Of a stretch of 64,000 nt of DNA, positions 25,342 through 29,296 are shown piece after piece. How positions within the stretch are numbered: the first letter of the stretch is position 1; every line of letters begins with the position of its first letter. Position numbers and translations under genes: made by a program. The notes below the pieces were generated by a model. The model ran no database searches and was not told the origin of the DNA. It saw only the letters and a program-made list of their open reading frames with translations. The DNA is from an uncultured archaeon (GTDB lineage Archaea > Asgardarchaeota > Heimdallarchaeia > Heimdallarchaeales > Kariarchaeaceae): positions 28,801 through 92,800 of the forward strand of contig CAZRLL010000001.1 in the NCBI GenBank assembly GCA_964600735.1, read 5' to 3'.

Positions 25342-25737
25342 CTAAGCCCTTACACCTCTACTCGACTTACTCTTGCTTATAGGAGGCCTCTCTGGTAAGT
25401 CTCTTATTAGCTTAGCATACTTCTTCTTTAGCCTTGGAGTCTTTGCACGCTCCCACATACAGAACTCTCCTTCTGGCATACCACGTCCTACAGCATTACA
25501 ATGCCCACTAGATGAAGACCAGATAACCGGACATTTCACTTGACACAAGTCATCATTTGGCTTAGTTGACGACACCCACTCGCATAAGAAACAATCGTTC
25601 TCTGCGTCTGGAATGTCTCCTCCATTTGACTTCCATCTAGGCCAATCTGTTTTAAATTTCGTAGGATGATGAAAGTGCCAATCCCACTGCTCTCTAAACA
25701 ACGCTATCGCTAACCCTTTACTTCTTCGCCTTCTCAT
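25342..25737 (-). CDS. Cys-rich protein, tandem paralog A
   Basis: Shares DWPxWKxNGGxIPxxExxCFLCEW...CP..WSS..G.CN with 25752..26090. Confidence 0.4.
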   Translation of the reverse strand: MRRRRSKGLAIALFREQWDWHFHHPTKFKTDWPRWKSNGGDIPDAENDCFLCEWVSSTKPNDDLCQVKCPVIWSSSSGHCNAVGRGMPEGEFCMWERAKTPRLKKKYAKLIRDLPERPPISKSKSSRGVRA

Positions 25738-25751
25738 TTCGCCCTCCTATA

Positions 25752-26090
25752 CTACCTTTCTGGTAAGTCTCTAATAAGTCTAGCGTACTTCCTCTTTAGT
25801 TTTAAAGTCTTTGCATTTTCCCACATATGGAACTCTCCATCTAACGAATTGCAACGTCCATTTTTTGATGACCACTTAAGGGGACATTTCTCTACACAAC
25901 TCTCTTTATAACTGTCTCTTACCCATTCACATAAGAAACATTCACATTCTACTTCTGGGATCTTCCCACCGTTCTTTTTCCATTCAGGCCAGTCAGACTT
26001 CTCTTTCGTTGGGTTACGAGAACACCAGTCCCATAAATCGTCATGCAACTCGATTGTCCTTGCCTTGTTAAACTTTTTTCGTTTCGTCAT
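25752..26090 (-). CDS. Cys-rich protein, tandem paralog B
   Basis: Paralog of 25342..25737. Confidence 0.4.
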   Translation of the reverse strand: MTKRKKFNKARTIELHDDLWDWCSRNPTKEKSDWPEWKKNGGKIPEVECECFLCEWVRDSYKESCVEKCPLKWSSKNGRCNSLDGEFHMWENAKTLKLKRKYARLIRDLPER

Positions 26091-26816
26091 TTTGCTCTCC
26101 TACTTACCCTTCAAGTACTTCTGGTCTCTTATTTCGATTAGTAGTTGATTACCTTTAATCACTTCACTTCTTATGCGACGTATATAAAACGGAATCATGA
26201 GAGTAAAAGCAATTAGGTAGATTCCAAAGATTGAACCTGCTACAATAGCAAACGAAGTAAAAAATCCTATGCTATCCATAAATCACTCCATCCTTGACTA
26301 TCTCCATATTTCATTCTCGTTGTTTTAACCACTACCACGAATACTGGTAAAATCAGTATATACACTACATAACACGCTAGTAAAATCCAGGCTAGTTTAC
26401 TACCAAGATCTTCCAACCCTTCTTCTTGCAGTATATTCTGACTTCTGCTAAAGTCCAATTTCGCATGTATTTTATGATTGGTGCACATCGTCTTTGTTTC
26501 CCTTCAATAGAAATACCAGCACAAAAGTACCTAGACGTTATCTGAATCAAGTTTACCTTATTCAAAACAGTCTAAAAGAAAAACTATATAAAGCGAACCC
26601 ATTGAGACTACTCCTAATACTAAAAGACCACCTATTACATAAATCATTTTCTTTTCTCCTGGAAGTAAGGCTTAATCGTAACCTCTTCGTCACGCAAAAT
26701 CTTTCCAAGTATTCCAGTATCTAAAAGTAACTCTTCGACTTCATTCTTTTCAAAGACCGTAAAACGCTTTTCCGTTTTCTTACCAAGTTTACTAGTCTTT
26801 ATTATAAGGTCTACTC

Positions 26817-27002
26817 TCATCCACCTATCTCCATTAGTTTGATCGTGTTTTCATGAGCTTTTACTACTTTTTCAGTTGAATAGAAGTGCTCCTTAACTAC
26901 ATCAAAGCAAATGAAAAGGCATTCATCGCAAATACTAACATCTGGACCTACGACTAACACCGCTACCTCATTCTGATGCTTCTTACAAAATGAACAGATC
27001 AT
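26817..27002 (-). CDS. ClpX N-terminal zinc-binding-domain (C4 ZBD) look-alike, stand-alone 61-aa protein
   Basis: MICSFCKKHQNEVAVLVVGPDVSICDECLFICFDVV aligns with the E. coli ClpX ZBD [36 protein letters not shown]. Confidence 0.6.
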   Translation of the reverse strand: MICSFCKKHQNEVAVLVVGPDVSICDECLFICFDVVKEHFYSTEKVVKAHENTIKLMEIGG

Positions 27003-29296
27003 TTATCCTCCACTTTCTGCTCAACAAATGGAATACTAACAGAATAGTTGTCAACTCCCACACCTGGAGTTGTTATACGTCGCTCACACTTACAAGACTG
27101 GCAAGTAATAAGCCAGTAGTGTTCTTCCTTACTAATATAGAAAGACTCACAACCACAAAAACACTTTTCCTTTTTCATTGTCTTACTCCACTGATGATTT
27201 TCGGTTATTGCTCTCGCACTAGACTCCCAACCAGCCACAAAAAAAAAGCCCATAACGAGCCATCTAACCAATCGTCGTATTCTGCCCATTCTCGATGCTT
27301 TCTATACTCCCTCGTACCTTTGTAATTATTCCATGCGACTAACATTAGATGATCTTTTGGTAATGGTGCTTCAATAGGCATATTAATCCTCCTGCTTCTT
27401 CTCAGTACGAATGTCACCAGTATGGACGTCAGTTACTTCATGAGTATGAACTTCTTTAGTTTTGAAGATTCCACCGCTTCCATCTGGTATTAAAGGAGTT
27501 GTTTCTTTAGAAATCTGTCTTTTCTCGGACACCTTTTTAAAAATACCATAACTTGCTTCTAGTCTATCAAGCATTTTTTCCATATACGGCCATGATATCT
27601 TCCCGTCTCTAACAAGCCTTATACTCGTACTAAGACACTCTTCATAAAGTCTGTCTCTTAATTTTGACCATCGCTCAAACTTGTCCCCAAGTAGATGTCT
27701 GATTCTTTCCTGCACTAACCTATCTTCTAAATAAGCTAGAACCCTATCGGCAGGAATGTCAAGTGAAATCGCTACTTCTTCTGGGGAAAAACCAGAACGT
27801 ATTCTTTGGGCTACTTCTTCCATTTCACCAGTAAAAGTAACCGAACTTCGCTTCAACTTTTTCGTTCTAATAACCATCTCCATCCCATTGTATTTGAAAG
27901 TTTGATTCCCTTAACACTAAATTTTCACAAGTAGATAAAAGAATTCCAAATTCAGTCTTTAATAACCGTCGCATCTTCCCAGTGTCTCTCTTTACATGTA
28001 ACGCGACTCGTAGCTTGTCCTTATCAATACTAAGAACTATACATACCATATTAAGACTCATTACATCGCTTATGCTGTCTTCGTAAAACAACCAGTATTT
28101 AGCAGCGTTGTGTTCAACGGAACCTCTAGAGTAAAAGAAGTAGTCGTTAATTGTGTTAAGCAACATTGTTTCGTAAAGACTGACTACGCCTTCTGGCTTA
28201 ACATAATAGTCGCTAATACGGGTTCTCTTAGGTTGACTTTTTACCAACAATCTCATCAGTATACTTTCCTAGTGCAATCCAACAGTCTCCTTCATTATCA
28301 TAAGGGCCAACTCTGTCTTTTAAGTCATTCCAAAAATACCACTTTCCCTCATGCAAGTGTACTATTTTTTCATTCATATAATATCCCATCCTCTCAATAA
28401 AACTCTTCCTAACCTTTTCCAATCAGAATCAGCACATAGAGGACATTTACCTAAACTACCTAGTTCTTTCCAGGCTTTAAACTCTGGTGGGTTTTCCTCG
28501 CGTTTATTCTTGATCCAGGTAGAATACCATTTAGGATGGCCAAATGATACCCAGTACTTCTTCTTACACTTACTACACGACTTCCCTGCTACTATAACAG
28601 ACATTACTTTTCCTTTCCCTTTTTTATTCTCGTTCCATCAACTAAATCTTCAACTAACGGAATTAACAACGTGTCAGTATAAAATGTAACTGATGGCGCT
28701 TTTGGTCTGTTTAAATGGCGAGTTAACTGAGGTCCACCATGTCTAATGTACAACTCGTCTAGTAACCCATGATTTCTAACGTAAGCGTAATGAAGTTTCT
28801 CCCTGTATTCTTCTTTCATTTCTAAAGTTGTACAGGCATTCATTGCCATTGATAGGGTTTGAAGTTGGTAGTTGTTTTCTAATAAAGGAGCAACTTCTTC
28901 TGGTCTGAGTTTTATAGAAGCCTCGATGTAAAAACCCAACTTCCTACCACACCACCATTTAATACGGTCTATTAAACTGACAGTTTCCATTTAATTACTT
29001 CCCCCGATCTTCAAATCTTCTAATAACTTTGTCTATTTCTAACTCACCAACTACTTCTATGTCTTTCCAAGTTATATCAACGTATCCTGGCTTCTTACTC
29101 TTTGCGTATGTTCCTAAAAGCCAAGTATCTGATATTAACGTACAGTTCTTAGGTACATAATAAGCACTAAATTTCTGCCCATGAGCTTCGAAACTGTAAA
29201 CATGACGTTTCCACTTTTTACCTATAGTAGTCCCAGTAGGTACAGACATAGAATATTCTAGTAAGTCATCAAACTCTTCCTTAGTTAAGTAAACTT

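Follow-up and report, generated by a model that had tools for sequence, protein, structure and literature searches.

A gene for a stand-alone ClpX-type zinc-binding domain (ZBD) was found in a stretch of 64,000 nt (hereafter the window), and its 61-aa product is a member of the ClpX ZBD family, not a ClpX. The protein is a small new subfamily of a catalogued and uncharacterised kind, the ZBDs without an AAA+ module (AAA-less ZBDs). By analogy with the E. coli domain supplied in trans, it may act as a decoy of the ClpX N-domain, probably dimeric, which would damp N-domain-dependent ClpXP proteolysis, and a rough probability of 45% was given to this reading.

The ZBD gene and its product

The gene and the parts of its product were located on the minus strand as follows:

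26817..27002, minus strand: stand-alone ClpX-type ZBD gene, stop codon TGA at 26817-26819 (ORF list and Pfam)
27007-27011, minus strand: Shine-Dalgarno GGAGG, 4 nt ahead of the ZBD ATG (direct sequence reading)
26999..27381, minus strand: upstream ORF with Cys-rich C-terminal half, its stop overlapping the ZBD start (ATGA); no Pfam or PHROG match
26644..26820, minus strand: downstream 58-aa ORF, its start overlapping the ZBD stop (ATGA); no family match
26883..27002, minus strand: ZBD proper, residues 1-40 (alignment to 1ovx/2ds5 and AlphaFold2 model)
26994-26996, 26985-26987, 26928-26930 and 26919-26921, minus strand: codons of the zinc ligands C3, C6, C25 and C28 (E. coli alignment)
26820..26873, minus strand: C-terminal tail, residues 44-61, EKVVKAHENTIKLMEIGG (conservation and AlphaFold2)

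The gene starts with ATG and encodes the protein MICSFCKKHQNEVAVLVVGPDVSICDECLFICFDVVKEHFYSTEKVVKAHENTIKLMEIGG, which was predicted identically in the ENA and NCBI versions of the contig and is deposited as MBW8001737.1 ('hypothetical protein FVQ80_06905 [Planctomycetes bacterium]'). The 4-nt ATGA overlaps tie the gene to both flanking ORFs, and its GGAGG Shine-Dalgarno falls within the 3' end of the upstream ORF. Scans for promoters and terminators gave counts not above those in shuffles.

The upstream ORF is a single ORF of 126 aa in the ENA assembly, with CFCGC...CQSCKC in its C-terminal half, and it is frameshifted in the window, where a T9 run is present at 27239-27247 against T7 in the ENA assembly of the same sample. 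The difference may stem from an error of assembly or in the homopolymer, or else from heterogeneity or slippage that is real. Ahead of this T run on the minus strand a weak hairpin was observed. The Cys-rich ORF is given as context only. The downstream 58-aa ORF had no counterpart beside the ZBD genes of the relatives.

The 61-aa protein matched Pfam PF06689 (zf-C4_ClpX) over profile positions 3-39 of 39, with E = 2.4e-12 and 47 bits, the gathering score being 27 bits. In a phmmer search of all PDB sequences the significant matches were ClpX entries only, among them the E. coli ClpX ZBD (1ovx/2ds5, E = 1.3e-10 to 2.2e-10), with which 20 of 39 positions were identical (about 51%, counted on the phmmer alignment). 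C3, C6, C25 and C28 align with the E. coli zinc ligands C14, C17, C36 and C39 (CxxC-x18-CxxC), and F5 and V35 are, as judged from sequence conservation in the alignment only, the equivalents of the E. coli pocket residues F16 and I46. C3, F5, C6, C25, D26 and C28 were invariant across 21 relatives. The AlphaFold2 model was built on 21 relatives and reached a block-mean pLDDT of at least 90 for residues 1-40; Foldseek matched it to 2ds5, 2ds6, 2ds7 and 2ds8 at rmsd 0.7 A over 38 columns with probability 1.00, 2ds8 being the ZBD-XB complex among these ZBD crystal forms, and gave no significant match besides ClpX ZBD structures. The predicted structure thus has the ZBD fold, with beta-hairpins that surround the zinc site and a helix at the C-terminal side. 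The protein presumably binds zinc and is probably dimeric.

The full-length ClpX models TIGR00382 and NF003745 were matched at N-terminal positions 10-62 only, with 39 bits against equivalog cut-offs of 371 and 359 bits. In tblastn with a full-length PVC-group ClpX and with E. coli ClpP, the sole match in the window and the 10 kb upstream was the ZBD itself; neither an AAA+ module nor ClpP was found there. This search spanned 74 kb of the 111-kb contig, from about 20 kb inside its low end to about 17 kb short of the other. A sequence-only reading of this DNA had described a protein that reproduces the C4 ZBD of ClpX and has no AAA+ module, and both statements held, the first on profile, PDB and structure comparison and the second on tblastn. 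The zf-C4_ClpX profile search that it named as its check was run and returned the significant similarity given above.

Phage context and closest cellular relative found

The window is DNA of a large phage, or perhaps of a prophage. Nearly all ORFs of at least 100 aa are on the minus strand, the GC skew is negative throughout, and the ENA scaffold (ERZ23499938 scaffold_73) is 111,339 bp long. The ZBD gene is inside a run of about 25 small ORFan genes, with a metabolic block on one side and packaging genes on the other:

Downstream of the ZBD gene: weakly terminase-like 617-aa protein, portal, 1842-aa MuF-like protein and capsid-like protein
13185-18713, minus strand: 1842-aa MuF-like head-morphogenesis protein with an ADP-ribosyltransferase toxin domain (PF03496, precomputed match)
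Upstream of the ZBD gene: ThyX, RecA and SbcCD-like genes
About 29978-57704, minus strand: sugar-biosynthesis block, unusually large for a phage, with ThyX in its middle

The portal, MuF-like, capsid-like and weak terminase matches, together with nearly all long ORFs being on one strand, support the earlier claim that the protein is phage-encoded. No prophage border was seen. Scans of the window for tRNAs and Rfam families gave no match. The immediate neighbours of the ZBD gene had no Pfam or PHROG family match. Megablast of the 14 kb around the ZBD gene against 50,697 phage records gave no match, so the phage is novel at the DNA level. The 1842-aa protein is probably an ejected effector fused to a minor head protein.

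The enzymes of the sugar block include NeuB, a PseB-like dehydratase, a second epimerase/dehydratase, a DegT aminotransferase, GNAT and a CMP-type cytidylyltransferase, as well as two HisF-like and one HisH-like proteins, a PIG-L deacetylase, DUF1643 and several glycosyltransferases. Three radical-SAM proteins were also present, two of them with B12-binding domains, and one glycosyltransferase was fused to a radical-SAM domain. The block may serve glycosylation of the virion, the host surface or DNA.

Two further observations were made on this contig. At 25342-25737 and 25752-26090 (minus strand) two adjacent paralogues of 131 and 112 aa are encoded, which are 53% identical (E = 3e-40) and have the conserved cysteines CFLCEW...C..KCP, with no Pfam or PHROG match. 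The 10 kb past the high end of the window (L181) have, on the same strand throughout, genes for a ribonucleotide reductase, a second ThyX, a UbiD-family decarboxylase, a class-V aminotransferase and an aldehyde:ferredoxin oxidoreductase.

The closest cellular match found for the ZBD protein was the N-terminus of a full-length ClpX from 'PVC group bacterium (ex Bugula neritina)', with 69% identity over residues 3-38; the GTDB search patterns favour lineages with 'DVNICDEC', and the taxonomic ranking is indicative only. Both proteins start directly before the first CxxC (M-x-(x)-CSFC), and both have the unusual hydrophobic helix CDECVFLCMDVV (CDECxFxCxDVV), at which the E. coli sequence differs. 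Residues R25/K26 of E. coli ClpX are changed to A/V and D41/N44 to F/F in the window protein, and the change of D41 to F is common to it and the PVC-group ClpX. A closest cellular relative in the PVC group fits the Planctomycetes label of the source MAG. The resemblance suggests that the 5' end of a host-like clpX was captured by the phage, which is indicative rather than proven.

The AHEN-tail subfamily and other AAA-less ZBDs

An exhaustive HMMER search of 1.84 billion representatives matched 6049 of them at E of 0.001 or better. P0004 (66% identity), P0099 and P0136 are single-domain proteins of 60-68 aa which could be aligned end to end with the window protein, and P0152 joined them through a profile search. 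The AHEN-tail subfamily is defined here by an N-terminal ZBD followed by a predicted helical tail, K-x5-E-N-x-I-x3-E, in a protein of 60-72 aa; the window protein has all of these features, and the other members are P0004, P0152, P0136 and P0099. This conserved C-terminal tail, by which the subfamily is defined, was missing from the sequence-only reading.

In the window protein, P0004, P0136 and P0099, the tail residues K45, E51, N52, I54 and E58 are invariant (AHENxIxxMEIG). The tail helix (residues 47-59) was modelled by AlphaFold2 with low confidence, at pLDDT about 55. In P0152 (L018 329-547) seven residues of the tail are exactly duplicated (EKLVDEH-EKLVEAH), and the duplication preserves the helical heptad register. 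Two readings of the tail were set aside. As a relic of ClpX, it was placed by tblastn on the linker (KKHRRTIKV) and by MAFFT on the YVIGQEQAKK helix, which is contradictory, and neither placement was used; a likeness to the SspB XB peptide (IKLM vs LRVV) is speculation and is not claimed.

The relatives came from marine-sediment and other metagenomes. L003 (10 kb) was the sole long contig among them and is phage-like, with the order methylase, AAA_24, ERCC4 nuclease, helicase, 61-aa gene, ZBD gene and 68-aa gene, of which the last three overlap by 4 nt each. The upstream 61-aa gene was common to L003 and L018 only. No homologues of the window neighbours were found beside the ZBD genes of the relatives, and a conserved gene neighbourhood was rejected for this reason. 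P0152 and P0136 both end in GIEVEK, and IEVEK is likewise the terminus of the upstream 61-aa proteins of L003 and L018; these shared residues are probably due to the Shine-Dalgarno of the next overlapping gene. On the contig of the closest relative, the gene after the ZBD (L019 315-545) is yet another kind of neighbour and encodes a protein with a Nudix-box-like motif, GIRGHIEAGEFPTSAMNRECKEETGL.

Further scans of sequence collections gave no additional member. IMG/VR had no match to the window protein alone, and with the subfamily alignment it gave 7 loci, the tail being in none of them: full-length phage clpX accounted for four or five of them, one locus being truncated by the contig end, and the rest comprised a stand-alone ZBD of 62 aa and a fusion of a ZBD with another region. 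The tail subfamily was likewise absent among 80 loci of the JGI metagenome scan (59 full-length ClpX, 18 running off the contig end and one 50-aa stand-alone ZBD). The GTDB genome scan found no tail-subfamily member, and the 8 loci inspected, the best match included, were full-length ClpX.

In codon-level comparison of the five subfamily genes, pN was 0.15-0.39 and pS was 0.34-0.87; dN/dS was about 0.1-0.6 in the pairs with finite dS, and synonymous sites were near saturation in most pairs. Because pN is far below pS among the relatives, the ZBD gene is under selection, and its protein, tail included, is maintained by purifying selection. These data bear on the idea that the gene is a non-functional remnant, a tolerated 5' fragment of a captured host or phage clpX. 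Its length does equal the ClpX N-domain plus part of the linker, and jumbo phages do carry full-length clpX. The idea is nevertheless very improbable, since the ORF is intact, has its own Shine-Dalgarno and is translationally coupled on both sides, all zinc ligands and the tail persist in five divergent relatives (44-66% identity) while most pairs are near saturation at synonymous sites, and no AAA+ remnant was found downstream in any frame by tblastn. Nor are the relatives fragments of full-length clpX, as stop codons and downstream genes were seen after the ZBD genes in L003, L018 and L019.

AAA-less ZBD proteins had been catalogued before, and the novelty implied by the sequence-only reading was overstated. 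The window protein matched PHROG 6797 (P88/D6-type, unknown function) with E = 4.5e-9 at positions 65-102 of 107, and the P88 protein matched it at positions 5-107 with E = 1.5e-58; the window protein and PHROG 6797 have a common domain and are different families. PHROG 12435, a stand-alone phage ZBD labelled 'protease', was matched with E = 3.3e-6 at positions 8-43 of 65, which covers the ZBD core and not the tail, and PHROG 5259 was matched as well. By tblastn, 28 phage records were matched, and two of the phage genes were located as follows:

L008 2309-2641 = KP063541.1 10195-10527, plus strand: coliphage P88 AIZ95127.1, 110 aa, C-terminal ZBD (Pfam E = 8e-18)
L009 2423-2644 = MK416022.1 about 13044-13265, plus strand: unannotated ZBD ORF of Klebsiella phage ST846-OXA48phi9.2 (Pfam E = 2.9e-10)

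The P88 protein is annotated as 'carboxylate-amine ligase' and its sole detectable domain is the C-terminal ClpX zinc finger; this label is probably an annotation error, which RefSeq NC_026014 and the D6 record NC_050154 have taken over. In P88 the gene comes after replication and recombinase genes, and orf93 of phage D6 encodes an AAA-less ZBD protein of 106 aa. The ORF of ST846-OXA48phi9.2 (at most 73 aa) lies between cII and a replication-initiator/DnaD-like loader gene (phrog_1701, E = 1e-115), ending 14 nt before the latter; the loader gene is at the position of lambda O and is followed by a DnaC-like gene, and the MK416022.1 record annotates a hypothetical ORF on the opposite strand in place of the ZBD ORF. 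In L003 the ZBD gene is two genes after the helicase, and L014 has a ZBD plus an unrelated 120-aa region. Jumbo phages have full-length clpX genes instead. For bacterial motor-less ZBDs the RefSeq name 'ClpX C4-type zinc finger protein' is in use (e.g. WP_222519889.1, Tateyamaria), and the best of the 6049 matches were dominated by proteins with 2-5 tandem ZBDs and no AAA+ module, or by ZBD fusions. Tandem examples are P0002 (221 aa, 4 copies) and P0096 (90 aa, 2 copies), an architecture which is widespread and apparently unstudied. A literature search found no characterisation of AAA-less or phage ZBD proteins; in a viromics preprint a contig was discarded since it carried a ClpX ZBD.

With a domain so widely re-used without its motor (6049 matches, tandem and fused forms leading the list), the ClpX-type zinc finger might be a mere dimerisation or peptide-binding scaffold whose target is unrelated to ClpXP, the conserved polar tail being the business end; the protein could, for example, regulate or chaperone a phage protein of replication, packaging or host takeover. 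A ZBD reported in cyanobacterial sigma factors (PMC11119718), the varied phage forms (C-terminal ZBD in about 110 aa in P88 and D6, ZBD plus 120-aa region in L014) and the subfamily tail, which suggests extra specificity, are in line with this. We hold it to be rather unlikely, as the only activities that PMC7226468 and PMC7804408 document by experiment for this fold are dimerisation of ClpX and the docking of ClpX adaptors and substrates, the residues of the pocket are retained, and closeness to the ClpX of the likely host superphylum is easier explained by mimicry.

Candidate function and comparison with known systems

According to the decoy reading, the phage would make the ZBD protein during infection from the tightly packed block of small genes. 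The free ZBD would take up the docking peptides of adaptors of the SspB, RssB or CpdR type, or those of substrates which need N-domain binding before unfolding. ClpXP proteolysis that depends on the N-domain, for instance of a phage protein for replication or regulation, would be selectively damped, and pore-recognised degrons (ssrA-like) would be left untouched. Since pore-read degrons presumably do not need the N-domain, a free ZBD would not be a general ClpXP inhibitor. No ClpX AAA+ module or ClpP was seen in the 74 kb, and so any ClpXP partner must be that of the host.

The main precedent is from E. coli, in which purified ZBD added in trans inhibited RssB-mediated breakdown of sigma-S by ClpXP in a dose-dependent manner, the ZBD dimerises on its own and RssB docks on it (PMC7226468). 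Degradation of lambda O requires the ClpX ZBD, and lambda O, SspB, RssB and trigger factor reportedly all use the hydrophobic region around F16/I46 (PMC7804408). The window protein keeps the zinc ligands and the F5/V35 equivalents of this pocket, and it resembles the ClpX of the likely host superphylum (69%, PVC group). The sequence-only reading had suggested that a free ZBD could titrate adaptors or substrates or protect a phage protein, and this is plausible because of the E. coli precedent in trans, the kept pocket residues and the likeness to host-superphylum ClpX; the partners that it would bind and the inhibition that would result are inferred.

In other phages (ST846-OXA48phi9.2, L003, P88) genes for AAA-less ZBDs are retained within replication modules or beside them, which makes a replication initiator attractive as the protected client. 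Against the decoy reading, no recognisable replication initiator is beside the ZBD gene of the window, and as the neighbours of the gene are not conserved in the subfamily, no partner could be read from synteny. The interaction of ZBD and adaptor in E. coli is transient or of low affinity (PMC7226468), and with such weak affinities a decoy would need high expression. The polar invariant tail residues E51, N52 and E58 would be superfluous for a simple decoy and give a hint of an additional or different interaction.

Another reading is an interaction with the host ClpX itself. In place of a free decoy, the phage ZBD could heterodimerise with the N-domains of host ClpX hexamers as a hijacking adaptor or poison subunit, and its tail would either bring a specific host or phage protein to degradation or lock the N-domains and so block ClpX more broadly. 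Avid dimerisation of the ZBD (PMC7226468) points this way, and a mixed dimer is sterically plausible at 69% identity to the PVC-group ClpX N-domain; invariant polar positions, such as the conserved tail shows, would be expected of a specific interface, and the heptad-length duplication of P0152 retains the helical register. However, N-domains in the ClpX hexamer are already paired and at very high local concentration, which should disfavour invasion by a free monomer, and a tail of 18 residues is very small for a cargo-binding module. The model of the tail is of low confidence, and no candidate cargo gene is conserved alongside. Heterodimerisation is accordingly considered improbable, and the decoy reading is kept as the preferred one.

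Extended to other phages, the decoy reading leads to a tentative and somewhat doubtful generalisation. Phages may have repeatedly captured from host ClpX nothing but the domain on which substrates and adaptors dock, as a natural, domain-mimicking inhibitor, which would shield ZBD-dependent substrates, notably their own replication initiators, from ClpXP. The AHEN-tail subfamily would then be a variant whose additional helix makes the decoy dimer stronger or provides a second target.

How stable classic phage proteins such as lambda O are is controlled by ClpXP, which can also trigger some toxin-antitoxin defences (CmdTAC). A literature search found no phage inhibitor of the ClpX N-domain. Free ZBDs, should they be decoys, would offer a simple and transferable off-switch for adaptor-dependent ClpXP degradation which leaves ssrA-type degradation intact, and a recurrent, ignored small gene of temperate coliphages (P88, D6) and Klebsiella prophages would be explained. 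As these phages and prophages are genetically tractable, the decoy idea lends itself to direct testing. Should the protein be only another zinc-ribbon scaffold, the finding would be an annotation detail. The occurrence of the ZBD alone would be no surprise to a specialist.

Set against the ZBD of E. coli ClpX, the window protein has the whole Pfam profile, the CxxC-x18-CxxC spacing, a predicted fold within 0.7 A and the F16/I46 pocket. Unlike ClpX, it is phage-encoded and has no AAA+ motor, and where ClpX has its linker it has a conserved, predicted helical tail of 18 residues. The proteins of P88, D6 and the Klebsiella phage are similar to it in being small and uncharacterised, in having zf-C4_ClpX as sole recognisable domain (E = 1e-10 to 1e-18) and in being encoded among early or replication genes. 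In P88 and D6, however, an unrelated region of about 60 aa precedes the ZBD, whereas the window protein begins with the ZBD; the AHENxIxxMEIG tail of the window protein is absent from those proteins, and no similarity exists outside the ZBD. Bacterial 'ClpX C4-type zinc finger proteins' and tandem ZBDs also have the ZBD without the motor, but belong to cells and frequently contain 2-5 repeats or additional regions.

Small proteins which act on AAA+ proteolysis are known from other systems. T4 PinA and T7 gp4.5 are phage inhibitors of Lon, and IraM and IraP are anti-adaptors against RssB. IraD is an anti-adaptor against RssB as well (PMC6546054, PMC7226468). The window protein is comparable to all of these in its proposed outcome only, a small protein blocking a specific route into an AAA+ protease, and differs from them in sequence and fold, which are unrelated. 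To our knowledge, none of PinA, gp4.5 and the Ira anti-adaptors mimics the substrate-docking domain of the protease itself, and the window protein, if the decoy reading is true, would represent a new type of phage anti-protease device, a class not yet described.
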